Of a stretch of DNA of 64,000 nucleotides, positions 925-20,130 are shown piece after piece; within the stretch, counting starts at the first letter, position 1, and every line of letters begins with the position of its first letter. The stretch comes from a virus (taxonomy: Duplodnaviria; Caudoviricetes): IMG/VR virus record IMGVR_UViG_3300029288_000057, positions 64,001 through 128,000 of that record. One strand, 5' to 3'. The notes below the pieces were generated by a model that worked only from the letters and a program-made list of their open reading frames with translations, ran no database searches and was not told the DNA's origin. A program made the position numbers and the translations under genes.

Positions 925-1038
925 TTACCAGTATTTATAAACGAAGTGAATTACACAATAAATTATTCCAATGACTATTGCAATATCAACAAGGACAAAT
1001 AACGCCCAAAAAGCAATTATAAGTTTTCTTTTTTTCAT
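925..1038 (-). CDS. Small membrane protein, 37 aa
   Basis: MKKRKLIIAFWALFVLVDIAIVIGIIYCVIHFVYKYW directly downstream of cassette promoter at ~1066-1098. Confidence 0.65.
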   Translation of the reverse strand: MKKRKLIIAFWALFVLVDIAIVIGIIYCVIHFVYKYW

Positions 1039-1101
1039 AACAAGTGTTTTATTGTGTTATACGATTATATAAAGTAAAAGTTTTGAGAAAGAAGGGAGAC
1101 T

Positions 1102-1329
1102 TTAGTTATATTTCTCATATAATTTTTTGCCTTTGTTCCAGGAGGTTATTGAAGTATAAAAGTCGGCTCCAGTTTCATTACACAATTCTTTGAGCTTCAT
1201 GTATTGGTCTTTTATCACAACTTCAATTTCTTCTTCATTAACTTCATCAATGAATCCAATGGGGTCAGATGCGAACATGGATATTGTGTATTCAACACAT
1301 TCTTTTGTAGTAGTCAATATTCTTTTCAT
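1102..1329 (-). CDS. Hypothetical early protein
   Basis: ORF fills one promoter-bounded cassette. Confidence 0.75.
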   Translation of the reverse strand: MKRILTTTKECVEYTISMFASDPIGFIDEVNEEEIEVVIKDQYMKLKELCNETGADFYTSITSWNKGKKLYEKYN

Positions 1330-1386
1330 TTTATGATTCTTTGATTATGAATATATAAAGAAAGGGTTCAGGAAAGAGGGAGAGTT

Positions 1387-1638
1387 TTAAGAGCCATGAA
1401 TACCCTTAATGGTCACTTGGTCGCTCATATCAGCACCTGTCAAATTTATCTTTTTTTCAATATCAATCAGGAATGACCAATGCAATAAATCAAGGTCTTC
1501 ATCATTCTGAGCTTGAAAATAATCTGGCACTTGCCACAAAACTGTTTCGGGGCAAGCAAGAATTTCTTCTACAGTGCTGTTTTGGTTAATGTTGTTTCCA
1601 GTTTCGGTTGGAACAACTGCAACTCTAAAATCTTTCAT
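1387..1638 (-). CDS. Hypothetical early protein
   Basis: Cassette ORF. Confidence 0.75.
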   Translation of the reverse strand: MKDFRVAVVPTETGNNINQNSTVEEILACPETVLWQVPDYFQAQNDEDLDLLHWSFLIDIEKKINLTGADMSDQVTIKGIHGS

Positions 1639-1694
1639 GACTTTGTTTTTGGTTTATAACAAATATATAAAGCGAATTTATTTGGAAAGAGGGA

Positions 1695-2021
1695 TTATTC
1701 TTTTGAGCATTCCTCAACAAGTTTTTTCTCTAGCTTTTTTGCCATTTTTATATAGGTTTCTTCAGCCTTGTTTGCTCTCTTCTTTGCATCCTCCAGCTCC
1801 TTCCTTGTTGCCCATAAAGTCTTGTCAGAAAACATCATAAACATCCATATCATTAAATAATAACTAAAAGCAAATATACCAATTACTATTGCAACTCTGA
1901 TTGGTGTATTTATTACCACTGGCTCAGGCAAGGTCAATAAAGTTATCAATCCAAGTACTGCGAAAAATGAAGGAATGAAACATATAAGCCCCACAGTCCT
2001 TAAGAATTTCTTTGTTATCAT
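1695..2021 (-). CDS. Two-TM membrane protein with C-terminal coiled coil
   Basis: Two hydrophobic segments; cassette ORF. Confidence 0.75.
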   Translation of the reverse strand: MITKKFLRTVGLICFIPSFFAVLGLITLLTLPEPVVINTPIRVAIVIGIFAFSYYLMIWMFMMFSDKTLWATRKELEDAKKRANKAEETYIKMAKKLEKKLVEECSKE

Positions 2022-2082
2022 GGTTTTTTGTTTTTTGATTTAATAAATATATAAAGAAAGAATTTCAGAAAAGAGGGAGACT

Positions 2083-2436
2083 TTAACCTCTCGGTTCGTG
2101 TTTAAAACAACTTAAGAAATAATCAATTGTAGGTTCAACAACATCTACGAACACGGTTTCTTCTCTGTGGCTTCGTGGAGTGATTCTCTTTACTGCTTTT
2201 TTTCCTGTGCAAGATTGACCGTTTAAATTACCTGTATAGAAACGCAAGGCACAGCTTTCATCATTTGCAAGTTGCAACAAATGTTCTTTGTTCTCAATAA
2301 AATATGCACCCTCGTAAACGTGCAACCAACTCCTATACACATTAATCCTGATAACTTCTTTACCATTATGTTCACTGGCTTCCGCCTCGAATGTATGTTC
2401 ACCCCAATGGGCAACTTTTCCTTTTATTTGTTCCAT
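2083..2436 (-). CDS. Hypothetical early protein
   Basis: Cassette ORF. Confidence 0.75.
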   Translation of the reverse strand: MEQIKGKVAHWGEHTFEAEASEHNGKEVIRINVYRSWLHVYEGAYFIENKEHLLQLANDESCALRFYTGNLNGQSCTGKKAVKRITPRSHREETVFVDVVEPTIDYFLSCFKHEPRG

Positions 2437-2446
2437 CGTGTTTGGT

Positions 2447-2674
2447 TTATAGTTGGGATTTTTCTGTTAATATTATTTTTCTAAACAGCAAAACTTTGCT
2501 TGCACTTTCAGGCATAACTCTTAAACGCTCTTTAATAGCAATAAATTCATCTTCACTCTTAGCCGTCTTTAGCATATCATCGACTATTTTTTCAAAGTGT
2601 GCATTCATTTCATCCTCGGCTTCTTTGAGTTCTAATCGCTTTCTTTTATATTGCTCTATTAATTTAGCTTCCAT
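2447..2674 (-). CDS. Hypothetical early protein (helical)
   Basis: Cassette ORF. Confidence 0.75.
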   Translation of the reverse strand: MEAKLIEQYKRKRLELKEAEDEMNAHFEKIVDDMLKTAKSEDEFIAIKERLRVMPESASKVLLFRKIILTEKSQL

Positions 2675-2729
2675 TTATCTTATTTTTTATATAAAGAAAT
2701 AATTTTAGAAAAGAGGGAGAGTTGTCTTT

Positions 2730-3596
2730 TTAAGGTTTCTTCCCGAACATATTTTTAAATGACTCTTCAAACGCTTCATTTTGTTTTTCCACTTTTTTAA
2801 CTTCTTCGGGAAAGATTGAACCGTAATACCAACGGGTTAATGAATAAACATCTTGCCAACTTTTACTATCAGCACCATTTGTTCCCTTTAGAATTAAGCC
2901 AACCCCGTGATAATATTCATCTTTAAGGTCTGTTTTAACGTCTAACACTTTGTGAGTGCCTAACATTTCACCTTTCTTAATAGTTTTAATCTTTTCAAAC
3001 ATATCCGTTTGGGCAAAGAGTTCCAAATACTTTCCGAACAACTCTTCAAGGCAGAAAATAAAATCATCAATGCTACTGAAATACTCTCCACCATTCCAAA
3101 CATTTTTTATTTTAATGTATTTTTCTCTTTTAAATGAAAAGTCATTCCACAGACTATGTATATTTCCTTCTCCAATGAAATCCATTAGAGCTACAATGTA
3201 TTTGTTTAAATCGTAAAATTCATTATCACACCTTGCGTCTGATTCATCATCTGACAACATATCACTGTCTGTGTTGAATGTAAAACAACCAAGTTTTGTG
3301 CCGTATCTATCCTCTTTTACAACCTTTGTGAAAATGGTAAAATGGCTTTGATACTGGCGTAAAATGAAAATTACATTGTCTTTCTGAATGATTGCCCAGT
3401 TATAGTTTTTTCCTTTGTTCCATTTCAATTTGCTCAAATCTTTTTTGAGTTTCTGTACTGGCAATTTTGTAAGGAGATAATCAAATGCAGATTTAAGCTT
3501 TTCACACAACTTTAAATCATAATACATGTGCATTGTTATATCGTTTTTGTCAAATTTAAAAACGTCGTGCTTGGTAAAATACATATTCTTTGACAT
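2730..3596 (-). CDS. Hypothetical early protein, 288 aa
   Basis: Long cassette ORF. Confidence 0.8.
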   Translation of the reverse strand: MSKNMYFTKHDVFKFDKNDITMHMYYDLKLCEKLKSAFDYLLTKLPVQKLKKDLSKLKWNKGKNYNWAIIQKDNVIFILRQYQSHFTIFTKVVKEDRYGTKLGCFTFNTDSDMLSDDESDARCDNEFYDLNKYIVALMDFIGEGNIHSLWNDFSFKREKYIKIKNVWNGGEYFSSIDDFIFCLEELFGKYLELFAQTDMFEKIKTIKKGEMLGTHKVLDVKTDLKDEYYHGVGLILKGTNGADSKSWQDVYSLTRWYYGSIFPEEVKKVEKQNEAFEESFKNMFGKKP

Positions 3597-3657
3597 AATA
3601 GTTTATTTTTGGTTATACGAATATATAAAGAAAGAATTTTGAGAAAGAGGGGAACTC

Positions 3658-4704
3658 TTACTCTGTTCCCAGAACCTGTATGTTGCCATTTTTAAATCCT
3701 GCTTTTCCCAATATTGAAAACATTTTAGCAATCATTTTATAGCTTTCAGCTTCGCTGTCTTTGTCGGTTAAATCAAAGCCCTCACCTGAAAATCCATCCA
3801 TAAGACTGGCGGGAGACATTTTATAATCCAAAAATCTTTCGACATTAACAGGACGGACAAAAGATTCAGCTTTAAACCATTTTTCAGGTTTTCTGTTTCC
3901 AATATTAAAAATATACATTTCGTTGTCCTGTATGGTCTCTTTTAAAAGCACGGCTTCAATTTCTTTTAGGTTTCTCAACCTTGCGTCTATATATTCTATC
4001 ATATCACCGTAGCCGTTGCCAACTCCAATGTCATTTTTAAAAAATTCATTTTTGAAATCTGTATGTTTCAGTTTTTTCAAAATGTTTCCTTTGAACTCTT
4101 TTGAAAGTAACATTCTCATTGAGTAGCTTTGTATATCTTCAATCATATCCTGAATGATTGGGAGTACCTTTCCATTCTTAATTTTGAGAGGACAGAGCAA
4201 AAATTCGCCCTCGTCTGAAAGAGTAATTAAGGCAGAAGGAACTTTTTTAGATATTTCTATCAGTGCTTTAAAAACGAGCAAGCTGTTAAATTCATTGCCC
4301 TGTGTCTTTGTGAAGCCGTGAAACTCATTGTCCCCCTTGTCATGTGCAAGAATATATCCTTTTTTCTCCATTTCAAAAACAGCGTCAATAAAACTGCCCG
4401 TTTCCTTTTCGGCTTTTTCCATGAGCTGATTAATCAAAGCCCAACCTGCCTCTGAACCGCCTCCATTTGTCTTTGTAACGAGTTTTACAGCGTTATTTTC
4501 CCAGTTGGGATAGTAATTACCCACACCAAGCCAAAAGTTCTCACAAGTCCAAAGATTCTTTAGTTTGGTTTTGTAAGTAGTATTAATTTCTTTTAACAAA
4601 CCTTTTGAATTGTAAAAAGTAGAAACCTGATACATGGATTCAAGTTCTTTGCGTGTGAAATTTCCTTTGTCACGCTTTATTGTGTAGTGGAGTGTCCTGC
4701 CCAT
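3658..4704 (-). CDS. Hypothetical early protein, 348 aa (MGRTLHY...FTKTQ...SDEGE)
   Basis: Long cassette ORF. Confidence 0.8.
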   Translation of the reverse strand: MGRTLHYTIKRDKGNFTRKELESMYQVSTFYNSKGLLKEINTTYKTKLKNLWTCENFWLGVGNYYPNWENNAVKLVTKTNGGGSEAGWALINQLMEKAEKETGSFIDAVFEMEKKGYILAHDKGDNEFHGFTKTQGNEFNSLLVFKALIEISKKVPSALITLSDEGEFLLCPLKIKNGKVLPIIQDMIEDIQSYSMRMLLSKEFKGNILKKLKHTDFKNEFFKNDIGVGNGYGDMIEYIDARLRNLKEIEAVLLKETIQDNEMYIFNIGNRKPEKWFKAESFVRPVNVERFLDYKMSPASLMDGFSGEGFDLTDKDSEAESYKMIAKMFSILGKAGFKNGNIQVLGTE

Positions 4705-4762
4705 AGCATTGTTTTTTGGTTTACAAACATATAAAGAAATCTTTAATAAAAAGAGGGGGCTT

Positions 4763-5254
4763 TTACCAAAACCCTATATAAATTTCTGTATCGCCACAAT
4801 TAAGAATAGCATCATAAAATCCGTTTATCTTTTCCAATTCACACTTAATGGCTTCTTTATTTTCTTTTGAGAATATCTCACTGGGAGTTCCGCCAAGCAT
4901 AGAAATAAGATTCTTAAACATATTGTGCTTTTCATCTTGTGAATAACTCCCAATCTGACTACTTATCCCTTCATCAGACCCCAAATAATTTAACTTTTCC
5001 TTAGCAAGATTAATCTGTTCAGTAGAAAAAACCTCGTCCCCTCCGTCTCCGCTGCATCCACTGTTAAACTTTTGTGCATCCAAACTTTCATAAAACAAAA
5101 ATTGACCAACGACATTGCCTGCTGAAAAACGAACGTAAGCAACTTCTTCGCCGACCTCAACTCCATTGCTAAGCCTAATCACATCATCATCGTGCGATTT
5201 CTCTTCAAAAGGAAGTCTTACTTTAAATCTGCGTGCTGAAATATCGTGTCCCAT
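4763..5254 (-). CDS. Hypothetical early protein
   Basis: Cassette ORF. Confidence 0.8.
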   Translation of the reverse strand: MGHDISARRFKVRLPFEEKSHDDDVIRLSNGVEVGEEVAYVRFSAGNVVGQFLFYESLDAQKFNSGCSGDGGDEVFSTEQINLAKEKLNYLGSDEGISSQIGSYSQDEKHNMFKNLISMLGGTPSEIFSKENKEAIKCELEKINGFYDAILNCGDTEIYIGFW

Positions 5255-5451
5255 TTGTTTTGGTTTATACGAATATATAAAGCAAAAGTTTTAAAAAAGA
5301 GGGAAAGTTATACTGGTCAACCACACGCATCCCACCGTTTTATTGTCTCAAGTTTTCTCCAGTGCAAACGACTTTTTAAGTCTCCTGTGTAATCATTTTC
5401 AACTCACACGCCAAAGCCTTGTCCGTTGTGTATAACGAATATTTTTTAAAG

Positions 5452-5682
5452 CTAAAATCTTCGGGGGTAATTATTAAGGGCTTCATTCATTTTACTCATC
5501 CAATTAACTTGTTTTCCATCTGACGAATAAAACACCTTATACTGCGGAAAGAAATGGAATACCTCATTATAAGTTCTATAACGTTCCACCTTTTCTTTAA
5601 CTCCAAATAACCCTTGAAGCCAGTTCGGTATTTTTGTTACGTAGTAAACATTTTCCTTTAGTTCTATTTTTCCAATTTTCAT
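5452..5682 (-). CDS. Hypothetical protein
   Basis: ORF with A-rich leader. Confidence 0.7.
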   Translation of the reverse strand: MKIGKIELKENVYYVTKIPNWLQGLFGVKEKVERYRTYNEVFHFFPQYKVFYSSDGKQVNWMSKMNEALNNYPRRF

Positions 5683-5701
5683 AACTTTGTTTTTTAGTTT
5701 A

Positions 5702-5983
5702 TTAATAGAGACAAGTTTCAGAAACTCTTATTTGTCTTATTTCAGCTTCTCCATCTGTGTTATATTCTACATTAATTATTACACTTCCTCCATATTTAAA
5801 GTTTTCTGATATTGAAAGTGTGTCAACATTGGTAATTTCATCATTAGCCCCAAGGCAAAGCATATCTGTTAACGCTTTTGTAAGTTTAACATTAAGCTTT
5901 TTATCAGAGGTGGCTTGAATAACAGACGTGTTGCTGCTGTTGTCACTATCAACTTCTTCGACTAAAAAAAATCTCTTTTCCAT
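5702..5983 (-). CDS. Hypothetical early protein
   Basis: Cassette ORF. Confidence 0.75.
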   Translation of the reverse strand: MEKRFFLVEEVDSDNSSNTSVIQATSDKKLNVKLTKALTDMLCLGANDEITNVDTLSISENFKYGGSVIINVEYNTDGEAEIRQIRVSETCLY

Positions 5984-6043
5984 AACTTTAAATTTTATTG
6001 GTTTATGATATTATAAAGAAAAATTTTTAAAAAGAGGGAGAGT

Positions 6044-6205
6044 TTATTCAATCAATTTAAAATTAGTCTTATCTATATTCCAAAATTTATCAACATAGTT
6101 TTTTTGATATTCCCAACCAATGTGAAAAGTGGTGCCAGCCCCATAGTGATAAGTTTGCAAACAATAGTAGTAGGGCTTTTTTAAATCGTTTATCATTGTA
6201 CTCAT
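6044..6205 (-). CDS. Small hypothetical protein, 53 aa
   Basis: Hand-translated MSTMINDLKKPYYY...FKLIE exactly fills the cassette between promoters at 6228 and 6008. Confidence 0.65.
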   Translation of the reverse strand: MSTMINDLKKPYYYCLQTYHYGAGTTFHIGWEYQKNYVDKFWNIDKTNFKLIE

Positions 6206-6289
6206 GATTTTAAGATTTTTGGTTACAAATACATAAAGAAATTAAACAAAAAAGAGGGGGAGACGTTTCCGTTTCCCCCTCCCTCAGTT

Positions 6290-6520
6290 TTATTTTACGG
6301 CCAGCGGTCTTTTTGCTGTTGCCTTTTTGTTTTTGCGAATCGTTTTCCACGCTTTTAAAGCACGTTCACGGTTCTTTCTCTTTCTTTCATTGGCGTGTCG
6401 TGTTACCCAGGCAGCACGAGCAGCAGCACTTCTTTTTTCAGCTCTTGCCCGTTCATTCTTTTTACGAGTGGCAGCAGCCTTGAGCGCAATTTTAGAAAGT
6501 TCTTCTTTTGTTTTCTTCAT
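6290..6520 (-). CDS. Small highly basic K/R/A-rich repeat protein, putative nucleic-acid binding
   Basis: Three repeats ALKAAATR/ARAAWVTR/ALKAWKTI; ECF-like promoter at 6559-6585. Confidence 0.65.
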   Translation of the reverse strand: MKKTKEELSKIALKAAATRKKNERARAEKRSAAARAAWVTRHANERKRKNRERALKAWKTIRKNKKATAKRPLAVK

Positions 6521-6639
6521 GATTGTCTTTTATTAATTAATTAATATTGAGACTGGTTTATACGAATCTAATTTAAAAAGGTTACATATAATAAAAAAAG
6601 GGGAGAGTTTCACCCACCCCCATTCTATAAATATTGTTC

Positions 6640-7551
6640 TTATTTTATGCGTTTCACAACCATTAGAAGCATGGGAGGGTTTTCTAAGCCGTCTTTGTAA
6701 GAAAGGTAATTGATACGTTTGAAATTGCCAAACTTGCTCATAAAACTACTCATTGCACTTAGCGTTTTAGACTCTTCTCTTTTGTATTTTCTCTCCCCAT
6801 TCAGCCTGTCAATAATATTTACTTCTCCTTCTTTGCTTCTACCATAACGCTGACTGAAAGTGAAAGAAATTGTACCGCCCCTTTTTACAATTTTATGTTT
6901 CATTGCAGTTGTAAGGTCTTTGTTTATACTTTCAAAAGAAGCGCAATAATCGAGCAATAAATGAGAGTATTTGTCAGCTTTTGATTCTGCAATCATATCC
7001 GAAATGTTTTCAGAAATCGTTGCTACTGGCAACCCATCTTTTAAAATGGTGCGCATCATTTTTACTTTTGTGCTTGGTTCAATTTCGGCAACGTCAAACT
7101 TGAAGTGCTTAGAAACTTCATTGACAATCTTTTTTTCCAAAATGCACTTGGCAGCGGGTAAAGACAAGATTTTGCCTTCTACAAGTCCACTTTCTTTGAT
7201 AGACTCCGCCATCATATTCCTTGCAATTTCTTTCTTCTCTCCAAAGTAATTGCCAAATGAAGCTTTTTTAACCCTTTTACGAGTTCTTTTTGGCTTTTGG
7301 GACTTTGCTATGTCTGTCAAAAGAAAATCGTTGCTAATAACCCCTAAGCGTTTTAAAGCAGCAATACACCCCGCAATTCTGATAGGTTTTATTTTTAACC
7401 TCTTTGCCATTTTTTCATTGCTCATTTCTGAACCATTGGCAAGTACAAAATCACGAACGGTATCGATGGAAACAACTTTTTGAGGTCTACCAACTTTTCG
7501 AGGTGGTAACTTCTTTGCTTTCCTTACTGATAATTTTTTATTTTTTGCCAT
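6640..7551 (-). CDS. HTH plus methyltransferase-like Rossmann domain protein
   Basis: N-terminal basic/HTH-like segment; ILSLPA...VAEIE...LLLDYC resembles class I MTase strands. Confidence 0.45.
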   Translation of the reverse strand: MAKNKKLSVRKAKKLPPRKVGRPQKVVSIDTVRDFVLANGSEMSNEKMAKRLKIKPIRIAGCIAALKRLGVISNDFLLTDIAKSQKPKRTRKRVKKASFGNYFGEKKEIARNMMAESIKESGLVEGKILSLPAAKCILEKKIVNEVSKHFKFDVAEIEPSTKVKMMRTILKDGLPVATISENISDMIAESKADKYSHLLLDYCASFESINKDLTTAMKHKIVKRGGTISFTFSQRYGRSKEGEVNIIDRLNGERKYKREESKTLSAMSSFMSKFGNFKRINYLSYKDGLENPPMLLMVVKRIK

Positions 7552-7607
7552 TGTTTTAGTTTTTTGGTTATAAACATATAAAGAAACTCGTTTGTGAAAG
7601 AGGGGAT

Positions 7608-7772
7608 AAAAAAATGGGAGGTTCAGGCCTCCCAGTTTTTATGAAGTGTGGGGCTCTAACCCACGCAAAACAATTCCTGAATCTTTTTATAAAAGCGAGA
7701 GAATCTAACTCCCCAACGGCTGCCTGCACTTTCAAAATTCAAGGAACAAAAATCTGTTTCGGTTTTTCTTTC
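7608..7772 (-). ncRNA. Putative structured small RNA cassette
   Basis: Own promoter (7778-7810) and terminator (7608-7640), no ATG inside, long stem and two 7-nt TTAGANN-loop hairpins. Confidence 0.5.
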
Positions 7773-7829
7773 TTCGAATATATAAAGAGTTTTATTTTGA
7801 AAAGAAGGGCTCTCCGTTGTCACTGCAGT

Positions 7830-7870
7830 AAAAAAGAGAAAAGGGCTCCTTGGGAGGGAACCCTTTCTCA
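7830..7870 (-). terminator. Intrinsic terminator
   Basis: GAGAAAGGGTTCC...GGAGCCCTTTTCTC followed by T run on minus strand. Confidence 0.7.
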
Positions 7871-7926
7871 CTTGTTAAACCACATATGTTAAACCACAAA
7901 CATATGTCAGAATATATTCAAGGACC

Positions 7927-8211
7927 TTAGCCTTTTTTTCCAAATTTATTGTGACATTCCTGCCAGAGGCTGTTAAGTTCATTCTCTGTCATTTCTTTTA
8001 CTCCGTCACTTAATTTACTTACAAGCATTTTAACATAATTCACTTCCATTCTTATTTTCTCTTCCTGTCCTTGGAACCTTAACATTTCCTGTACATCACT
8101 AAGGTGAGAAAAAATTGCCATCTTTAGGCTTAGCTTTAATGTAGCTTTTATTTCTTCGTCAGATTCACCCTCAAATTCTGTGTATGCATCGTTTTTAATT
8201 AAATCAGCCAT
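7927..8211 (-). CDS. Hypothetical early protein
   Basis: Cassette ORF. Confidence 0.75.
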   Translation of the reverse strand: MADLIKNDAYTEFEGESDEEIKATLKLSLKMAIFSHLSDVQEMLRFQGQEEKIRMEVNYVKMLVSKLSDGVKEMTENELNSLWQECHNKFGKKG

Positions 8212-8261
8212 AGTACTTTGTTTTGATTGTATAAAGCCTTTTGTTAAGAAAGAAGGAGTTT

Positions 8262-8474: not shown

Positions 8475-8493
8475 AACTTTGAGTTTTTATTGA

Positions 8494-8661: not shown

Positions 8662-8725
8662 AACGTTTTGTTTTTTGGTTTATAAACATATAAAGGAATC
8701 CATTCGGGGAAGAGGGGAACAGAGT

Positions 8726-12110: not shown

Positions 12111-12111
12111 T

Positions 12112-12341: not shown

Positions 12342-13301
12342 TTACTGATAAGCCACATCATCATCAAAAATTTCAAGCTCCAATTCTTCTCTTGCCGTCC
12401 TTGCTTGTGCTTGCGTCAATCTTTTGCCGCTGTTCGGGTGCAAATGCTTCATGTCAGCGAAAATATGAATCCATCCCTTTGCTTCAATTGTAGGCACATC
12501 TGATTCTAAAATCGTATGCACATATTCAATATGATTAGTATATTTACAATAATGCATTGTTCCATCGGGGGAGAGCCAACCCATCTTTAAACTTTTATCT
12601 GTGGAATCTTTTAACAAGTCCTGATAGTGTGTTGTCTTTGCTCTCTGTTCTATTGTATTAACCACATCCCAACTTTTCGCCTTAACAGTTTCGAGAATCT
12701 TATCTTTTGACCCAAGTATACACCAACTAAAGCCATTTGATGCTAAAAGTATTTGTGAGCCGTCTGCGTGCTTTCCTCCAAGCTCTTTCCAAGAAATTTG
12801 AAAATCCGTTTCGCTTGCACCAATGAATTGTTTTACCAATACAAGCGTTTTCATATCAATAGCTTTTTTTTCATTTACAATTATTCTGTAGCAAAATTCA
12901 CCATCTGAACCAACCCATTTGCCTATACGTTTCATCTCAAAATTCTTTGGTATGCTGCCCAAATCCCTTTCAATGTTTTTAGGCTCGGAAACATATAAAA
13001 CTGTTTCAAACCTCTCAAGGTTATTTTCAATCGTTTCTTCGGGAAAACCACTGTGACAAGGACGAATGAAAACGGGTAAACAACTATCGGGGAATTTAAA
13101 TTTGGTGCAATCCAAAGGTAATACCTTTGATAAGGTTTTACCTGCATCAGCTATGCCCCCTGGCAATATATCCAAACTGATTACTTTATCCATCAAAGAG
13201 CCAAGCAACCCCTCACCTGCCCCACAATCTACAACCACACGCCCTTTGGCTTCCTTTTTAATTATCGCTAAAAGTCCTTTGTCAATTTGACAGAATATCA
13301 T
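12342..13301 (-). CDS. SAM-dependent methyltransferase-like domain fused to a GWLSPDG...H phage domain
   Basis: VVVDCGAGEGLLG motif I; C-terminal GWLSPDGTMHYC...H. Confidence 0.55.
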   Translation of the reverse strand: MIFCQIDKGLLAIIKKEAKGRVVVDCGAGEGLLGSLMDKVISLDILPGGIADAGKTLSKVLPLDCTKFKFPDSCLPVFIRPCHSGFPEETIENNLERFETVLYVSEPKNIERDLGSIPKNFEMKRIGKWVGSDGEFCYRIIVNEKKAIDMKTLVLVKQFIGASETDFQISWKELGGKHADGSQILLASNGFSWCILGSKDKILETVKAKSWDVVNTIEQRAKTTHYQDLLKDSTDKSLKMGWLSPDGTMHYCKYTNHIEYVHTILESDVPTIEAKGWIHIFADMKHLHPNSGKRLTQAQARTAREELELEIFDDDVAYQ

Positions 13302-13396
13302 AGCAGTTTGGTTTTATTGGTTTATAAACATATAAAGGAATATGTTCAGGAAAGAGGGGATAAACCACATAGAATTGTTTCTTGTGGGGTGCGTAA

Positions 13397-13537
13397 TTAT
13401 TTTCTGCGTTTAAATATTGCCTGAAATATATATATAAGTCCTTGCATTATGTAATAAACTGAAACGAGAAATATTACTCCATATCCTAATAATCTACCAG
13501 AACTCTGTTGGTTTAAAAATTCAAATAGTGTTTCCAT
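13397..13537 (-). CDS. Small membrane protein, 46 aa
   Basis: Hand-translated METLFEFL...IFKRRK; follows promoter at 13561. Confidence 0.6.
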   Translation of the reverse strand: METLFEFLNQQSSGRLLGYGVIFLVSVYYIMQGLIYIFQAIFKRRK

Positions 13538-13578
13538 TGTAATTTGTTTTTATTGATTGAATATATAAAGCAAAAGTT

Positions 13579-13881
13579 TTAGGAAAGAAGGGATTTGTCT
13601 TTTCTTACACACCACGTCTGAGTGCAATTTGAAGTATGAAGATATTCAGGACGCCCTTTGCAGGAGATATAATTAGGAAATGTTTCTACATCTATTCTTT
13701 TAGCATTCAGTAAATTGTTTCCCACATTTTCGGGAGTTACCGAATATTCATACGTATTACCCCCCATCTTATCCCACGTAACAATACAATCATAAAAAGC
13801 TCTTTCGCTCTCAAATAATTGTTTTCTTATTAATTTGCCTTTTGCACTCGTTAATGTATATTCAAATTCAAATGCGTACAT
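13579..13881 (-). CDS. Hypothetical protein (start revised to MYAFEF)
   Basis: AACCAATAAAAAACGCAACC leader before ATG 13881. Confidence 0.7.
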   Translation of the reverse strand: MYAFEFEYTLTSAKGKLIRKQLFESERAFYDCIVTWDKMGGNTYEYSVTPENVGNNLLNAKRIDVETFPNYISCKGRPEYLHTSNCTQTWCVRKDKSLLS

Positions 13882-13900
13882 GGTTGCGTTTTTTATTGGT

Positions 13901-14143
13901 TTATAAAGATACTTTAATTTTTGTTGACAGTTCATCCAGTTCCTTTTTTGTTTCGTCGTCTGATACACTTCTTACTCTCTCAATCATTCGACCAATTTGG
14001 AACGCTTCTATTGGCGTTAAGTCTTTTGGTGTTTCTACAGTTTTCTTTGCTAATTTTCTCCATGTGCTTTCCTGTAGACCGTTTAGTGGTCTTGATGAAA
14101 AATTCTCATTCGCAAATTCTAATAATAATTTTGGGAAGTTCAT
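13901..14143 (-). CDS. Hypothetical early protein
   Basis: Cassette ORF. Confidence 0.7.
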   Translation of the reverse strand: MNFPKLLLEFANENFSSRPLNGLQESTWRKLAKKTVETPKDLTPIEAFQIGRMIERVRSVSDDETKKELDELSTKIKVSL

Positions 14144-14204
14144 AGTGCAAAGTTTTATTGATTGAATATATAAAGCGAATTTATTTGGAAAGAGGGGAGA
14201 GTTT

Positions 14205-14408
14205 TTAATCCAAAAACATTAATTCCTTTTGAATGCTTTCAGCTTGCCTGCTGTATTTTTTGTACATTTCTAAACACGCATGTCTGCCGTATGTATTGTT
14301 TTTGTCTTCACCAAAAAAAAGACGTGCGCAGAACCTTCTGCTGCTTATTACACTGTTTAATTGGTATTTCAGGTATATTCTTTTGAGAAATTTCTTGAGC
14401 CTTTTCAT
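14205..14408 (-). CDS. Hypothetical early protein
   Basis: Cassette ORF. Confidence 0.7.
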   Translation of the reverse strand: MKRLKKFLKRIYLKYQLNSVISSRRFCARLFFGEDKNNTYGRHACLEMYKKYSRQAESIQKELMFLD

Positions 14409-14466
14409 GGTATTTGGTTTTTATTGGTCGCTAAATATATAAAGCAAACAAAAATGAAAAGAGGGA

Positions 14467-14655
14467 TTAATTAAAAGAATGATAAATGTACTTTGCCCCA
14501 CGCCATGTTTTCGGAAGGGGTTGTATTCGTTCTGCGTTTACTTCCAGCCCAAACTTTTGATTCTTAAAATGTACCCTTTTGGAATTAATCATGTCAATAA
14601 AACAAAGTTTGGTTCCAGAATGAGTAATAACTTTTACATATTCACCGAGTTGCAT
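14467..14655 (-). CDS. Hypothetical protein
   Basis: Cassette ORF. Confidence 0.7.
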   Translation of the reverse strand: MQLGEYVKVITHSGTKLCFIDMINSKRVHFKNQKFGLEVNAERIQPLPKTWRGAKYIYHSFN

Positions 14656-14660
14656 AGCTC

Positions 14661-14906
14661 TTAGTTTTTAGGGAATATTGTATTAAAATCAAAAGTCTCA
14701 AGTATGGGTGCGTTTCCTGGCATTTTACCAGTTCTTCTGTTTATCCTTTGAGCATAAATAGTGTCGCCTTCAAAACCAAAAACCTTGTACAATATTTCAT
14801 ATTCTCTGCCAAAGCATTTTTTAGGAGAAGGAATAAGAAAAAAACGACCTGTTTCAATCCCTTTGTGGTTTGATTCAAATTTTATGTCTGAGAGTTTCCT
14901 GCACAT
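14661..14906 (-). CDS. Hypothetical early protein
   Basis: Cassette ORF. Confidence 0.7.
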   Translation of the reverse strand: MCRKLSDIKFESNHKGIETGRFFLIPSPKKCFGREYEILYKVFGFEGDTIYAQRINRRTGKMPGNAPILETFDFNTIFPKN

Positions 14907-14963
14907 GGTAATTGTTTTTTTGGTTAAATATATAAAGCAAAAGGAAATGGAAAGAAGGAGTGT

Positions 14964-15302
14964 TTACTCCCTGTATATAGCCTCATTGAGAAAGATTTCA
15001 AAGTCTTTAATAGCTATATCAACGTTTTCACAGCTATGAAAATTGTTCTTATGGTTTGGGTGAGATAACCCACAGAATTTTTTATGCTTCATGAATACAC
15101 TATATAAATTTTCTTGATGGTCAGGATTGTATAGGGTAACTTTTAACGGTTCAATTGCACCAGCGAATGAACTTTCATCTAATGGAATTTCATATTCACA
15201 GGCTTGTGAATTAAGACTGTGAACCTTAGTCCCAGCATGATTGAGTATGATTTTCTGTATTTCTGAAACGAATTTTATTCTGTCTTTTTTTGTATTTTTC
15301 AT
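14964..15302 (-). CDS. Hypothetical early protein (start revised to MKNTKK)
   Basis: Start placed downstream of promoter at 15326. Confidence 0.75.
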   Translation of the reverse strand: MKNTKKDRIKFVSEIQKIILNHAGTKVHSLNSQACEYEIPLDESSFAGAIEPLKVTLYNPDHQENLYSVFMKHKKFCGLSHPNHKNNFHSCENVDIAIKDFEIFLNEAIYRE

Positions 15303-15363
15303 AGTTTGTGGTTTTGGCTTGTTAAATATATAAAGCAAAATATTAAAAGAAGAAGGAATCGGT

Positions 15364-15603
15364 TTAATTCCACCCCCTCAGCTTTTGAACGTATTGGATA
15401 AACATAAACCTGCAATCATTTTCAAATTCTTCGTAGGTCATTGGGGCAAACATCTCACTATTGAACTTACCTGCGATAATGAATTGCATCATATTTCTTT
15501 TAACATCGTAACGGTAAGTCGTCTCTGAACCAACTACGTGATAATAGTAAACATCCTCTGTACGAGACTTAATAAGCATTGGTTGTTTTATAGACTTTTT
15601 CAT
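15364..15603 (-). CDS. Hypothetical early protein (start revised to MKKSIK)
   Basis: Start placed downstream of promoter at 15622. Confidence 0.7.
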   Translation of the reverse strand: MKKSIKQPMLIKSRTEDVYYYHVVGSETTYRYDVKRNMMQFIIAGKFNSEMFAPMTYEEFENDCRFMFIQYVQKLRGWN

Positions 15604-15644
15604 ACCGATTGTTTGTAAGTTTATAAAGCCATTTTTAAATAAAG

Positions 15645-15792
15645 AGGGAAGACGGGGTACCAAACCCGTCTTCCAAAACCAACTAAACCTAAACATGAAA
15701 AAACCAACTTCGCTAACTAATATTTTTATAACATGTGTATTTTCTTTTTATCATGCCAGAAACTTTTATCTGGCTCTTCACCTCTGGTTCTG
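15645..15792 (-). ncRNA. Putative small RNA cassette with U/G-rich tract complementary to AACCA-type leaders
   Basis: Own promoter (15797-15826), only a 13-codon ORF, ends in 10-bp hairpin GGAAGACGGG/CCCGTCTTCC. Confidence 0.4.
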
Positions 15793-15832
15793 GAGTTATA
15801 AAGAAACCTCTCCAGAAAAGAGGGAGAATCAC

Positions 15833-16210
15833 TCAACCCGTCGTTTCAATAACTTCACAGAAGTTTGCAGTATATAAGGCGGAATTAAGCAAAAGACTTT
15901 CATAAAACGACAGTGCTTTTTCTCTATCCTCAAAGTTTTGAAAGTAGTCTGTTAAATCTTTATCCCGCCCCTCAATAACATAAGCCACACAATATTTAAT
16001 ATGAAATGTATTCTTTTTTTTAAAAAACTTATCTATAAAAGTGTTAATTCCATAAGCTGCAAAAAGAATAAGCAATATAGAAACACAAAAAGAAATAAAC
16101 CCCGACGTTACGTCCCACACTGCACCCCACCCACCACAAATAGTAATGACAATTGCAACGGCAAGTATAATTAAAATAAGTCTTTTGGATATTAAAATTT
16201 CTTTTTTCAT
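15833..16210 (-). CDS. Two-TM membrane protein
   Basis: Hydrophobic N-terminal half. Confidence 0.75.
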   Translation of the reverse strand: MKKEILISKRLILIILAVAIVITICGGWGAVWDVTSGFISFCVSILLILFAAYGINTFIDKFFKKKNTFHIKYCVAYVIEGRDKDLTDYFQNFEDREKALSFYESLLLNSALYTANFCEVIETTG

Positions 16211-16261
16211 AGTGGTTAGTTTTTATTGGTTTATAAATGTATAAAAGAAAGGAAGGAAAGA

Positions 16262-16468
16262 TTATTTTGACTCGTTTAAATCAATTATCAAATGGGTTTT
16301 AGTTTCACTAATATTAAACGTTCTCCAATCTGAATTTTGCTTTTTCGTATTGCAAACGAATATTGTTGTTTTCCTGACATCATGCTCAAATATTGCAAAG
16401 CATTTTCCGTCTTGTATCGCATAATCTGAATAAAATGTTCCTTGAGGTTTTTTAATTCTGCGTTTCAT
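16262..16468 (-). CDS. Hypothetical early protein
   Basis: Cassette ORF. Confidence 0.7.
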   Translation of the reverse strand: MKRRIKKPQGTFYSDYAIQDGKCFAIFEHDVRKTTIFVCNTKKQNSDWRTFNISETKTHLIIDLNESK

Positions 16469-16530
16469 TTTGGTTTGTTTTGGTTTAACAAATATATAAA
16501 GCGAATTTATTTTGAAAGAAGGGAAGTTTT

Positions 16531-16809
16531 TTAAACATTAATAGTTGTTGTTATTGTTGTAATAGTTTGAATCTGGAATTGAGAATTTTCGTAAGTTTTT
16601 TCCCCTTCATAAACACTTTCTCTTAATTCCTGTATATGTTCAAGTGCTTGTTCATATCCATAAATATCAAGAGTTGTCTTTCCTCCTTCGGGGTTAAACT
16701 TTTTCCATCTTTCATCAAATTTTGAATATCCTTCTGGTGAAAAATAACCATTCATATCTTTAGTTTTTACAACTAAATATGTATTTGTTTCTGTTGTTGT
16801 GTCTTTCAT
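16531..16809 (-). CDS. Hypothetical early protein
   Basis: Cassette ORF. Confidence 0.75.
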   Translation of the reverse strand: MKDTTTETNTYLVVKTKDMNGYFSPEGYSKFDERWKKFNPEGGKTTLDIYGYEQALEHIQELRESVYEGEKTYENSQFQIQTITTITTTINV

Positions 16810-16877
16810 GGTTTCTATATTTGAATATATAAAGTAAATTGTTTCAAAAAGAAGGGATTTATTATTGACTTTTGGTT

Positions 16878-17183
16878 TTATAATTTACTTGCAATAGATT
16901 TTAGCAAATTATGGAACTCTTCAAAGTCTTCTAATGACTTCCGTATTGTAAACACATTACAGTAATCTTCTGCCTGCCTATAGGTTGTAATTTGTTCATC
17001 AACATTAAAATCATTCACATAAGAAACAAATTCCTCTTTGGTAAATGGGCGTAAAAGAATAATCATATCCACCCCGCCAGAAGTCCATATTTCTAATTCG
17101 GCAACTTGTGTTTTTTCTTCTTTGAACAAAGATACGTTAAACCCGTTGTCTTCAAAAAATTTGGTTAATTGTTTTATTTTCAT
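16878..17183 (-). CDS. Hypothetical protein (start revised to MKIKQL)
   Basis: Upstream extension overlaps a promoter and the tRNA-like element. Confidence 0.75.
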   Translation of the reverse strand: MKIKQLTKFFEDNGFNVSLFKEEKTQVAELEIWTSGGVDMIILLRPFTKEEFVSYVNDFNVDEQITTYRQAEDYCNVFTIRKSLEDFEEFHNLLKSIASKL

Positions 17184-17203
17184 GTTTGACAGTTTTTTGT
17201 CTT

Positions 17204-17291
17204 TTGCCCCACGAACAGGACTCGAACCTGTCACAGTATTATTTCCTGCGTTGTTCACAACATTACATTGTGTGCCTGACAAGACGTGGAG
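17204..17291 (-). tRNA. tRNA-like / pseudo-tRNA element lacking a D-arm (nominal anticodon TAA)
   Basis: Acceptor-like CTCCACG/CGTGGGG, canonical T-arm ACAGG-TTCGAGT-CCTGT, stem CACAA/TTGTG with 7-nt loop TGTAATG, long variable stem; no encoded CCA. Confidence 0.55.
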
Positions 17292-17316
17292 TGTAAGTAT
17301 ATAAAGCAAATTTATC

Positions 17317-17544
17317 TTAAAGAAGGAGACTTTTTTCACCAGCCAGGATTTCTTTCATTTCTTTAGAGCTTACAAAGTCAGCTCCTCTTGAAAATGGTTC
17401 GTCAAATGCTTTGATTTCTTTTTTTAATTTCCTTGCTCCACATTTGCATTCAAAGATTATTTCTCTTGTGTGAAAAGAAATATACATACATGCTATTGGT
17501 TTGCTGAAATTATGTATATGCAGCTTTTTAAATAATTTTTTCAT
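17317..17544 (-). CDS. Hypothetical protein (HxH...CxCG putative Zn site)
   Basis: Cassette ORF. Confidence 0.7.
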   Translation of the reverse strand: MKKLFKKLHIHNFSKPIACMYISFHTREIIFECKCGARKLKKEIKAFDEPFSRGADFVSSKEMKEILAGEKSLLL

Positions 17545-17576
17545 TTGTTATAGGTTTATTGGTTAAATATATAAAA

Positions 17577-17984
17577 TTACCGAAAACTTGTCCTGTATGG
17601 GTAGCTTGGCTGCGTTTTAGAGATTAATATTCCATACCTCCAAACTTCTTTTGTGTTTTGTTCATACCACTTGTTTATTATATAATGTCTTGCTTCAATA
17701 TGAGGGGGCAATTTATCAATATAAGAATTAACATTCAATTTATTAAATTCCTGAAACGTTATTTTGCTCCTTTCATCAACAAATTTTTCAGCAGCCTTCA
17801 ATGGACTTGGATAATTGCATTGTTTCAAAAAATCATAAACAGCTTGCAAAGATTTACCTTCAATATAAGCGTGCCTGTAAAAATCATCAATCCATGAATT
17901 AAAAATAAATTTAGGGCAGTTCAAATAGTTTCTTGAATAATATACATAGTCAATAAACTTTTCAGTGGGGTTTAAAAGTTCCAT
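17577..17984 (-). CDS. Hypothetical early protein
   Basis: Cassette ORF. Confidence 0.75.
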   Translation of the reverse strand: MELLNPTEKFIDYVYYSRNYLNCPKFIFNSWIDDFYRHAYIEGKSLQAVYDFLKQCNYPSPLKAAEKFVDERSKITFQEFNKLNVNSYIDKLPPHIEARHYIINKWYEQNTKEVWRYGILISKTQPSYPYRTSFR

Positions 17985-18054
17985 TTGTTTTAATTTTTAT
18001 TGGTTAAGTATATAAAGCAAAATTCCCTCCAAGAAGGAAACATTTGCTATTTTT

Positions 18055-18180
18055 TTACTTTGCCCTTACTCCTCTTTTACGTGCAAAAGTGGTATTCGGA
18101 TTGCCTTTTTCCAGTCTGATTGCTTCAGCAGTTTTGCGAGCAAATTTACGTGCTGTCCTGAGAATAGATTTGTCGTTCAT
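18055..18180 (-). CDS. Small basic protein, 41 aa
   Basis: Hand-translated MNDKSILRTARKFARK...; fills cassette after promoter 18207. Confidence 0.6.
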   Translation of the reverse strand: MNDKSILRTARKFARKTAEAIRLEKGNPNTTFARKRGVRAK

Positions 18181-18299
18181 GTTGTTTTATTTTTATGGGT
18201 TATGATTATATAAAGCAAAATTCCCTCAAAAGAGGGAGGTTTATAAAATAATTATAAATAAGTCTTTGTTTTTTTAAATTTCTTTTTTATATTTATAAT

Positions 18300-18495
18300 A
18301 AAGTTCTTTAAAATATTGCTGTGGTGAATAGGGACATTCGTTGCAGGATAAACAAAAAAACGGTGAGGCGTTGACAATAGTCAAGTCTGTGAAACGTTAA
18401 ATTCCACTATTAATTTGGATAAGTTCACGGGTTAATAACTAAAGTAAATTTTTTTAGAAAATGACCAAAAAGCCCCTGACTTTGGGGCTTTTTTA
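18300..18495 (+). ncRNA. Putative late-expressed structured RNA
   Basis: TATTTATA at 18290, boxA-like GTTCTTTAAAA, several hairpins, no ORF, terminator 18466-18495. Confidence 0.5.
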
Positions 18496-18654
18496 TTATT
18501 ATAATGTAAGATTTAAAATGTTTTTTACAGTTAGAAGAAAGTCGGCGCTCGTATCATATCTATTCAGTATTTAAGGTAAATCAATAAGGCGTTAATTAAC
18601 TCAATCTTTTTGCAGGGAAGGACTTTTATTTCTCAGCATAGCTTTTAAGGCTTT

Positions 18655-18945
18655 TTAGATGATTAATAGATTTGTTTTCGTTGTCAGCTCAATATTTAAA
18701 GCAACCGCATTGATTAAGCTTTTTATGGTTACAACTTTTTGTGCTTCGTTGAATTGTGAAAAATCTTTATCCACAATAATCTCAGAAAGATTCTGAATGG
18801 TCTCTAAAAGGTCAGCCTGTGCAGGCGAAATAGGTACTGTCTTTTCTCCCTGTGGAACAACTGAAATTTGCTCTAATGGTGCAGACAAGTTTTCGGAGGG
18901 GTTATCATCATAACTCTTGAACCCGATTTTGTTTCTAGTTTTCAT
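18655..18945 (-). CDS. Hypothetical early protein (start revised to MKTRNK)
   Basis: Start downstream of promoter 18973. Confidence 0.75.
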   Translation of the reverse strand: MKTRNKIGFKSYDDNPSENLSAPLEQISVVPQGEKTVPISPAQADLLETIQNLSEIIVDKDFSQFNEAQKVVTIKSLINAVALNIELTTKTNLLII

Positions 18946-19240
18946 GGCTCGTAGTTTTAATTGGTTTGCGGATATATAAAGCAAATAAAAACAAAAAGAG
19001 GGAGAGACAAACAGCCCCAAAAATACCCCAATCCCGCACCTTGTGAGTGCAGGTCAACAAACTTTCGTTCTCTGAGAAAAGGACTGAACCTCTTAACGCT
19101 TAATCATAATTGTTTTCCTTTCATTGTTTCTTATTCTGTTATGTATATAAAGAAAATCATTAGCAAAGAGGGAAACTTTTTTGAGTGAAAAAAAAAGAGA
19201 GTGCGACTTGTACCCCCTTTTTACCTATTTTTTTTAACCC

Positions 19241-19798
19241 TTATTCAATTTCAATCGTTTCGCCGCTTACTTTAACTTTGCTTGTAATGTTAGCAATTTT
19301 ATAATAGCGAATTTTTGATGTTTTAAGGTCAAGCACCTTTTCAATATGCTTTTTTGCAAGTGTCAAAGGACGGCTTTTTACTTCTTTGTAAATGCCTGCC
19401 TTGATAACATTTTTGCGTACCACCGTACCCGAAATTAATACACTGCCTGTTTCCTTGCAATATTTCAGCGTACCCTTATCGTTTAAAGAAATGTAAGCTT
19501 CTTTTTGTCCATTTGAACGTACTTCGTTCGGCTTAACAAGGGACTGCAATTTTTCAGTAAGTGCCTGCTCAATTAGTGAATGACCAAAATTGTCATTTAC
19601 TAAATCATTTAACTTTGCACCCTTTAAAGTTTCAATGTCGGCTTCTTTCATATTGCCGTAACTTGCACCTACGTTAATTAAAACGTCTGCAATTTCACTG
19701 TTTTCGGATGAATCTGAACAGTAACCCTTAATTGCAACAAAGGAAACACCGTTAAAGTTGAATCCCTCAATCAGTTTTAGTAATGTTATATATTCCAT
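19241..19798 (-). CDS. Hypothetical early protein, first gene of the leftward array
   Basis: Long ORF, promoter at 19826, terminator at ~19190-19222. Confidence 0.8.
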   Translation of the reverse strand: MEYITLLKLIEGFNFNGVSFVAIKGYCSDSSENSEIADVLINVGASYGNMKEADIETLKGAKLNDLVNDNFGHSLIEQALTEKLQSLVKPNEVRSNGQKEAYISLNDKGTLKYCKETGSVLISGTVVRKNVIKAGIYKEVKSRPLTLAKKHIEKVLDLKTSKIRYYKIANITSKVKVSGETIEIE

Positions 19799-19929
19799 TT
19801 TATTCGTGTTTTAATTAGTTTACGCATATATAAAGGAAAAAGTTACAAAAGAGGGACAAAAATTATCAACACCACCGCCCTCTTTTCATAACAAATATCT
19901 TTATATGTTTAACCAAAAAACCAAACGAT

Positions 19930-20130
19930 ATGTTTAAGCTATTAGAAAAAAAAATAAGGGGCTTGCTTATGCAAATTGAAAGTGGAAAAACCACCCCAGA
20001 AGAAAGTGGTATCGCAGACTTGTTAAACAGAATGAAAGAAATTGACGAACCTTGTTGGGAAGGACTGGCACAACGATACATAAAAGCTTTAGGAAAGATT
20101 GAAGCAGCTGAAGTAAAACAAACCGCCTAA
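19930..20130 (+). CDS. Hypothetical early protein, divergent
   Basis: Preceded by the inverted cassette promoter at 19877-19908. Confidence 0.75.
   Translation: MFKLLEKKIRGLLMQIESGKTTPEESGIADLLNRMKEIDEPCWEGLAQRYIKALGKIEAAEVKQTA

Follow-up and report, generated by a model that had tools for sequence, protein, structure and literature searches.

The class A array

The window analysed here is a 64,000-nucleotide stretch of one 290,886-bp virus contig (IMG/VR record IMGVR_UViG_3300029288_000057; 33% G+C), namely contig positions 64,001-128,000, so that window position 1 is contig position 64,001 and negative positions lie to the left of the window. Up to position 19,909 it is occupied by a row of small genes and copies of a short repeated element, a candidate promoter that we named class A. 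The element consists of a C-rich upstream box (C-box) and an AT-rich downstream box (box 2). Its exact pattern, CCCTCTTT-N11-14-CTTTATATRTT, matches 14 times in the window and not once in 100 shuffles. Thirteen of the 14 matches lie on the minus strand, which is the coding strand of the region, so the motif precedes the genes. A relaxed search, allowing up to two substitutions per box, found 35 copies between 1038 and 20130, of which 34 are minus-strand and one is plus-strand, and one further copy at 253-284. The same search of the whole contig gave 63 copies, 58 of them good, all within contig positions 41,406-83,909. The whole array thus covers 42.5 kb, from window position -22,594 to 19,909, and the window opens inside it. 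Outside the array, the remaining window and the rest of the 290,886-bp contig contain only poor matches to class A. Copy coordinates below run from the start of the C-box to the end of box 2 in plus-strand numbering.

1-19909, minus strand: part of the class A array that lies in the window
253-284, 1064-1095, 1350-1380, 1662-1693, 2046-2077, 2686-2717, 3620-3651, minus strand: class A copies
4726-4757, 5272-5303, 6228-6258, 7573-7604, 7777-7808, 8226-8256, 8685-8716, minus strand: class A copies
9072-9103, 10116-10147, 10786-10817, 11531-11562, 11956-11987, 12304-12335, 13327-13358, minus strand: class A copies
13560-13591, 14165-14196, 14434-14465, 14927-14958, 15325-15356, 15618-15648, 16491-16522, minus strand: class A copies
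16824-16855, 17296-17326, 18007-18037, 18205-18236, 18971-19002, 19142-19172, 19825-19855, minus strand: class A copies
19878-19909, plus strand: the sole plus-strand class A copy, facing a 66-aa plus-strand gene at 19930-20130

The original prediction for this DNA had described a 20-kb array with about 38 copies between 1038 and 20130 and no motif after 20.1 kb. Our count of 35, plus the copy at 253, agrees with that number, and nothing convincing was found beyond the copy at 19878-19909 in the window or the rest of the contig. The array itself is 42.5 kb long, the prediction having covered its right-hand 20 kb, and the repeat, which we confirmed, has to be read on the minus strand. The last copies form a divergent, back-to-back pair at 19825 (minus) and 19878 (plus), each facing its own gene, which marks the promoter-proximal end of the array. 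We also noticed that two non-adjacent copies, at 1662 and 14165, have an identical 32-mer in common.

Anatomy of the element and of the cassettes

Anchored on box 2, the copies give the consensus aaa..ttCCCTCTTTTc..aaa..tTTGCTTTATATAtT(T/C)(A/G)TAtAACCAAAAA. The run C-T-T-T-A-T-A-T-A is near invariant, with 53-58 of 58 copies agreeing at each position, and the C-box positions are kept in 45-58 of the 58. The two boxes as defined are separated by 12 or 13 nt, which corresponds to 16-17 nt between (t)CCCTC and TTTATA, the spacing of a sigma-70-type bipartite promoter. The next ATG is located 10-27 nt downstream of box 2 and the preceding stop codon is most often 4-6 nt upstream of CCCTC, and the intergenic distances cluster at 56-64 nt. 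Most units contain a single gene and some hold two or three; ~62% of the array gene junctions carry a class A element. The tiling of the DNA in promoter-payload-stop units is therefore as it had been described before. The mRNA leaders are short and A-rich and have no Shine-Dalgarno sequence, which is a trait of Bacteroidota (PMC6847099).

The orientation of the element tracks the downstream gene at the divergent pair, both in the present 290,886-bp genome (G000) and in its 372-kb relative IMGVR_UViG_3300014208_000024 (G001), where the pair is placed at 316977 (minus) and 317014 (plus). Two boxes at a fixed spacing, an orientation towards the downstream gene, the flip at the divergent pair and the direct contact with a structured RNA described below all support the view that class A behaves like a promoter. 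The timing of this predicted promoter would be early or delayed-early.

The array contains ~94 open reading frames, among which no paralogues were found at E < 1e-5, and a single type of regulatory element fronts ~60 unrelated payloads. A Pfam scan of the 46 array proteins in the window returned no family, and PHROG gave one match, of unknown function. Host takeover or anti-defence, the roles suggested in the original prediction, may be among the payload functions.

RNA cassettes and the probable start of transcription

Two of the units contain candidate RNAs.

17200-17291, minus strand: tRNA-like RNA cassette; the RNA starts 4 nt past box 2 of the element at 17296
7606-7772, minus strand: unit for a candidate small RNA, flanked by the elements at 7777 and 7573, with its own hairpin (7615-7634) and a U tract

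The tRNA-like RNA, a 90-nt structure, is built of an acceptor stem, a D-like arm of 4 bp, an arm of 5 bp that closes a 9-nt loop (GAAAUAAUA), and a T arm carrying the canonical T loop GGUUCGAGUCC; the 9-nt loop takes the place of the anticodon loop, and there is no variable loop. A 17-nt hairpin insert in the D-like loop occurs only in the G000 copy. Homologues in two metagenome fragments (L190:1227-1310 and L171:2201-2285; L numbers denote loci or fragments) are also located behind a class A element and start 2 nt past box 2. In the cloverleaf of the three phages, all 68 cells of the 26 pairs are standard pairs, compared with only 34-53% for slid partners, and five pairs spread over all four arms show compensatory changes on both sides. 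ARAGORN and Rfam make no call on 17200-17291, in scans that also covered window 1-22000 and both RNA units. The four-arm cloverleaf is thus supported, whereas the 9-nt instead of a 7-nt loop and the silent tRNA models place the RNA outside the tRNAs proper, and we call it no more than tRNA-like. A role as decoy or mimic for tRNA-directed enzymes is conceivable.

The second unit, ~170 nt from promoter to terminator, contains no AUG and is partly conserved at the matching place in G001 (L013:7640-7930); the z-score of its fold is only -1.5. The earlier proposal that the payloads include RNAs as well as proteins is borne out by the tRNA-like RNA and its compensatory changes, with the candidate small RNA in addition.

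The position of the tRNA-like RNA also bears on the start site. Provided that the acceptor stem is wholly part of the primary transcript, the start can be at most 2-4 nt past box 2. The 5' end of the RNA is 4-6 nt past TATATA, and this position fits TTTATA as a -10-like hexamer with (t)CCCTC, 16-17 nt upstream, as a -35-like box, while it does not fit a host-type -7 box on TATATTYR. Transcription probably starts 2-6 nt past box 2.

Predicted terminator hairpins in a subset of copies

A hairpin of -7 kcal/mol or below that involves the C-box was found in 31% of the G000 copies and 27% of the G001 copies, compared with 13% and 6%, respectively, after the upstream sequence had been shuffled. In window 1-20000 there are 31 terminator-like sites where 12.2 +/- 3.8 are expected, and many of them overlap C-boxes. 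In these hairpins, G-rich upstream stretches pair with the C-box as the 3' arm.

15647-15674, minus strand: strongest composite terminator, a 10-bp hairpin ending in the C-box of copy 15618
10816-10836, 14955-14972, 4757-4774, 6603-6621, 6254-6281: similar hairpins

In the element at 3620-3651, the C-box is the 3' arm of the hairpin GGGAAC/GTTCCC, and the metagenome fragment L192 has GGGAGAG/CTCTCCC at the same place. Since the arms differ between the relatives yet still pair, we count this case toward a terminator function in a subset of copies. We predict that class A is a promoter, of which a minority of copies also serve as one half of a terminator. As a separate observation, a perfect two-way terminator, AAAAAGCCCC-loop-GGGGCTTTTT, is present at window 18467-18493 on both strands, in a 440-nt stretch without a called gene.

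The element is kept while the genes turn over

In G001, ~55 copies extend over 33 kb (317,014-349,752; L012-L014), with the same box 2 and the same divergent pair at the start. The G001 C-box mostly reads CCCACTTT instead of CCCTCTTT, and the spacer is more uniform (..AAATAATTTG), indicating that the upstream box can drift as a set within one genome. G001 copies show 14-17 differences per 50 nt to their genome-mates, compared with 13-25 to the orthologous G000 copies. Class A was also found in the metagenome fragments L145, L153, L157, L171, L179, L190 and L140 and in the ENA scaffold L205, and it is kept in at least five related phage lineages that have little gene content in common.

Only ~17 of the ~94 array genes are common to G000 and G001, at 30-72% amino-acid identity; they are mostly collinear, and two are displaced by more than 13 kb. 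In L153, L157, L171, L190, L140 and L205, the element is kept and the gene order is changed. The homologues in L205 come in the order -6458, -13479, -8102, compared with -6458, -8102, -13479 here; L153 has the homologue of gene 2083-2436 between homologues of genes ~11-15 kb further downstream; in L157 the homologue of -7298 comes after those of -15508 to -18027; and in L190 three genes that form one cassette here have scattered homologues. The gain, loss and reordering of units that had been predicted is thus seen as content and order that are not conserved among relatives keeping the element.

The fragment L192 (Ga0172379_10147240, 1,728 nt) is the one comparison close enough for breakpoints to be placed at the nucleotide level. 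Its nt 234-1728 match window 3583-5094 at 79%, and its nt 1-306 match window 1083-1388 at 97%, with both matches overlapping in one class A element. L192 contains a homologue of the 348-aa gene, then the element, then the 75-aa gene, and the identity shifts at the 5' edge of the element.

1388-3583, minus strand: four cassettes with five genes (288, 75, 117, 108 and 83 aa; ~2.2 kb) missing from L192
1350-1380, minus strand: downstream end of the indel, the element before the 75-aa gene 1102-1329
3620-3651, minus strand: upstream end of the indel, the element after the 348-aa gene 3658-4704

The chance of both ends falling in elements is far below 1% if breakpoints are random along the DNA and ~40% if they are limited to intergenic spacers, the latter because ~62% of the junctions carry an element. 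By its sequence, the L192 case fits a model in which the element is a recombination joint and is no proof of it.

Window 1000-9000, searched against the phage collection for near-identical DNA, gave no match, and the loose pattern CTTT-N11-14-GCTTTATATA in viral contigs gave only chance single hits among the matches listed. Related-locus searches with a 185-aa protein and with the sigma alignment returned G001 only. The Logan contig L200 is 100% identical to G000 and hence offers no variants, and no fragments close to G001 at the nucleotide level were found.

Other promoter classes and the candidate readers

By motif, four promoter classes are present in the whole contig: host-type, TATTTATA, extracytoplasmic function (ECF)-type and class A. 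Host-type sites, TTTG-N18-21-TAnnTTTG, occur 14 times within 120 nt of starts, and one of them precedes the operon of an RpoD-like sigma factor. The Bacteroidota consensus is TTTG-N19-TAnnTTTG, and in Flavobacterium johnsoniae its -7 box hardly ever varies at T-6 and G-5 (PMC6847099). The second motif, TATTTATA, is located 10-25 nt before ~65 starts outside the array, and the genes behind it include, by scan, those for DNA polymerase, terminase, portal, tail fibre and head-tail adaptor. We note that TATTTATA is the reverse complement of the T4 late box TATAAATA read in gene orientation, as for example at window 40415, 43565, 51124, 53192, 56993 and 60927.

For the ECF-type class, TG(a/t)AAC-N16-CGTATAa, a spacer of exactly 16 nt gave 35 copies, compared with 2-11 at other spacers, and 28 of the 35 are near starts. 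This is the canonical architecture of ECF-sigma promoters, such as the SigW promoter TGAAAC-N16-CGTA. ECF-type promoters overlap class A copies at four places, 1059, 5267, 10781 and -5636. A weak class A "copy" at 6560-6601 proved to be an ECF-type promoter only. Class A matches neither the Bacteroidota TTTG/TAnnTTTG consensus nor the other two classes; it does not match the E. coli-type TTGACA/TATAAT sites either, and these are not enriched.

25216, 34431, 36706, 36742, 40370, 42992, 49826, 51174: examples of ECF-type sites in the window
5267-5303, minus strand: example of a class A copy with an overlapping ECF-type AAC-N16-CGTATAA
Contig 289,764-290,606 (L010:1372-2214): RpoD-like sigma factor of 280 aa with regions 1.2, 2, 3 and 4
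Window -16,861 to -16,190: ECF-type sigma factor of 223 aa, inside the array and directly behind a class A element

The phage does not appear to bring its own RNA polymerase: the scans gave no beta-type domain, and a search for T7-type RNA polymerase was uninformative, as its own controls gave no matches. Besides the two listed sigma factors of the sigma-70 family, the searches gave no other sigma. The 280-aa sigma shares 86% identity with its counterpart in G001 (98,742-99,578) and belongs to a tight family of 279-aa proteins that are 80-89% identical and encoded on contigs up to 540 kb. Its nearest cellular homologues are the RpoD proteins of Bacteroidota and neighbouring phyla (41-45% identity). 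This relationship, the host-type promoters and the missing Shine-Dalgarno sequences point to a Bacteroidota host. Region 4.2 reads LTNERVRQ in 18 of 18 sequences of the phage family and LTRERVRQ in 7 cellular Bacteroidota RpoD proteins. The residue changed from R to N aligns with E. coli R584, which we take to be a base-contacting residue of the -35 helix. The region 2.4 core is common to the phage sigma and the host RpoD.

We favour the 280-aa sigma as the reader of class A because of the R-to-N change in the -35 helix, the host-type promoter of its operon and the ECF sigma being the natural partner of the AAC/CGT class, although from these sequence features we regard this assignment as about evenly balanced. 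The motif type suggests that the natural target of the ECF sigma is the TG(a/t)AAC-N16-CGTATAa class. The host sigma alone is a doubtful reader of class A in our estimate, and a box-binding activator would be another possible one.

A predicted promoter-bounded block resembling the PeSLs of T4-type phages

The portal protein matches gp20-type portals in 2,566 T4-like records, and its nearest cultured relatives are those of Microcystis phage Mel-JY01 and Flavobacterium phage immuto, with 38-42% identity over half of the protein. We therefore placed the phage in the T4 superfamily, in agreement with the PHROG hits of the terminase and the DNA polymerase. In T4-type phages, composite early-promoter and stem-loop modules called PeSLs have been described from RB49/phi1, T4/PST and KVP40/nt-1; a genome contains 51-52 of them, clustered in front of ORFans in hyperplastic regions, and their G-run/C-run stems may overlap the -35 box, with the type A3-4G3-loop-C3T3-4 in nt-1 (PMC2839356, PMC4122927). 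PeSLs bound indels between close relatives, and mini-circles arising from recombination were shown by inverse PCR (PMC2839356, PMC4122927). Stem-loop-associated variants of middle promoters, named "PmSL", are known from nt-1 (PMC4122927).

The class A array resembles the PeSLs in its ~50-60 copies per genome, its hyperplastic ORFan block, a module that spans from the upstream stop to the downstream ATG, stem-loops overlapping the upstream promoter box and indel ends in the modules, here in the one nucleotide-level case of L192. It differs from them in that PeSLs have a sigma-70-like host consensus and the promoter part of class A does not, in that class A has no Shine-Dalgarno part and carries a stem-loop in only ~30% of the copies, in forming one contiguous 42.5-kb array rather than several regions, in its host phylum, Bacteroidota, and in that some cassettes carry RNAs. 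The parallel to the early-promoter cassettes of T4-type phages, drawn in the original prediction, thus applies to architecture, number and turnover, but not to a host-type promoter. Judged by its sequence, the array matches the PeSL description in architecture, number and comparative behaviour and is a variant built on a predicted non-host promoter.

The anatomy of the element, its restriction to one block, its conservation among relatives, the element-bounded indel and the RNA cassette are direct observations. With some reservation, we consider it probable that ~60 copies of one phage-specific promoter drive a recombining cassette block of PeSL-like design. The geometry of class A, with (t)CCCTC(TTT), a spacer of ~16-17 nt and the invariant CTTTATATA block, would fit a holoenzyme of the sigma-70 family, and the copies would drive a hyperplastic block of 42.5 kb in which unrelated small ORFan genes stand beside a few small RNAs. 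In about one-third of the copies, the C-rich box and the T run would be the 3' half of an intrinsic terminator that closes the previous unit, and these hairpin-bearing copies would be composite terminator-promoter modules of the PeSL type. With the same 36-45 nt at most junctions, homologous recombination between copies could take place within one genome or between co-infecting relatives, and would lead to deletion, insertion and reordering of whole expression-ready units.

Several points weigh against this reading. Promoter activity, start site and timing are predictions from the sequence. About 70% of the copies have no hairpin, those at 14165 and 16824 among them, and in an exact 5-mer complement test the arm shows no covariation with the CCCAC/CCCTC box variant. 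The dispersal in L190 indicates that exchange is not confined to element-bounded units, and copies within G000 resemble each other no better than they resemble G001 copies. With an element at ~62% of the junctions, breakpoints near elements are weak evidence except in a close comparison, of which L192 is the only one. As for the reader, the shared region 2.4 core would also suit a reading by the host sigma. In addition, no gp55-like late sigma was found, the open reading frames near contig 179.5 kb having no PHROG or Pfam sigma match, and this weakens the assignment of sigma factors to promoter classes by elimination.

One alternative is that class A is an immediate-early promoter for the unmodified host RNA polymerase and its primary sigma, with TATATT(Y)(R) as a relaxed -7 box and the C-box as a terminator half or UP-like element. 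We regard this as possible, on the doubtful side. In its favour, TATATT and the -7 box of the canonical sites are equally far from the ATG, TATATTTG or TATATTCG is found in 17 of 58 copies, the block resembles the early region of T4-type phages, and the portal is gp20-like. T4 early promoters likewise depart from the host -35 consensus. On the other hand, T-6 is present in only 50% and G-5 in only 29% of the class A copies, and the host consensus does not include the positions that are invariant in class A (C and TTTA upstream, CCC.C). A start set by TATATTYR would fall within the acceptor stem of the tRNA-like RNA in L190 and L171, and perfect host-type promoters are used elsewhere in the genome.

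A second alternative, which we think rather unlikely, accepts the promoter and denies the joint: class A would be only a strongly constrained promoter, the genes would turn over by illegitimate or gene-flank recombination, and selection would keep the intact units. It agrees with a conservation that is concentrated in the two boxes while the spacer varies, with the missing homogenisation within G000, and with rearrangements between genes that have no element between them; at the observed share of element-bearing junctions, coincidence is likely. The 2.2-kb indel of L192, with both ends in elements and an identity shift there, argues against it, as do the homogenised copies within G001, the identical 32-mer at 1662 and 14165 and the recombination of the T4-type equivalents to mini-circles (PMC2839356). 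The idea of the motif as a recombination joint, which goes back to the original prediction, therefore gains from the L192 indel and is limited by L190, where genes have been separated without an intervening element.

That the repeats are not promoters at all, and instead are integron-like sites of a site-specific recombinase or RNA processing or termination signals in polycistronic transcripts, is very improbable: the stop codon at a fixed distance and the hairpins of some copies would suit it, but most copies have no hairpin, an AT-rich bipartite box is placed at promoter distance, the element turns around together with its gene, a structured RNA starts immediately behind one copy, and no recombinase is among the 46 scanned array proteins of the window (~48 array genes to the left of it were not scanned).

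A bolder form of the promoter-cassette reading, which we put forward tentatively, takes class A as the private promoter language of an uncultured clade of Bacteroidota jumbo- or megaphages, read by their own RpoD-like sigma with its R-to-N change or by a box-binding activator. The array would then be an actively recombining, self-expressing library, and the tRNA-like RNA in it, with a 9-nt loop in the "anticodon" position, might be a decoy or substrate mimic against tRNA-directed defences of the host.

Relation to other systems and implications

The T4 middle promoters combine a MotA box at -30 with a normal -10 element and are read by a sigma-70 remodelled by AsiA/MotA. Class A is similar in having a good downstream element and a non-host upstream box near -30, for which a phage factor would be needed. 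It differs in that the box sequence is unrelated and in that the present phage has its own RpoD-like sigma, which T4 does not; no MotA or AsiA homologue was found, although no search aimed at one was made. In the sigma cascade of Bacillus phage SPO1, host sigma A is followed by gp28 and then by gp33/34. Similar to SPO1, the present phage has several promoter classes and phage sigmas, the first sigma behind a host-type promoter and the later ECF sigma within the class A block. Unlike in SPO1, the pairing of sigmas with classes rests here on motif type (for ECF) and elimination, and no cassette array has been described in SPO1.

Integron arrays are comparable as long, one-directional rows of unrelated small genes with a repeated short element and a content that varies between relatives. 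In contrast to them, a single Pc is replaced here by a predicted promoter for each unit, the repeats do not form attC-type imperfect palindromes, and exchange probably proceeds by homologous recombination. No integrase was found among the 46 scanned array proteins of the window, to which this search was limited.

We found no description in the literature of such arrays in Bacteroidota phages. Until now, descriptions of PeSL-type shuffling have come only from T4-like phages of Proteobacteria, with a host-consensus promoter as the shared module; the same architecture now appears in an uncultured Bacteroidota jumbo-phage clade, on what is predicted to be a non-host promoter. It supplies a 45-nt sequence as a defined candidate signal for phage-specific transcription, in a phylum where phage transcription is almost unstudied, and a direct example of accessory-gene exchange in very large phage genomes. 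It also delimits, unit by unit, a natural library of ~90 unknown genes, probably expressed early, and a few RNAs.

Other features of the array

The 348-aa array protein (3658-4704, minus strand) is part of a family with at least 83 members, some of them encoded on bacterial contigs beside genes for an integrase, DUF3846, DUF2779, a Dam methylase or Cas9, and this neighbourhood suggests a function common to mobile elements.

The only tRNAs called by ARAGORN in the contig, tRNA-Glu(UUC) and tRNA-Met(CAU), are located at contig 53,143-53,220 and 53,375-53,445, inside the array and outside the window. Both genes adjoin a plus-strand gene of 342 aa, which is better conserved among the relatives than the neighbouring cassettes.

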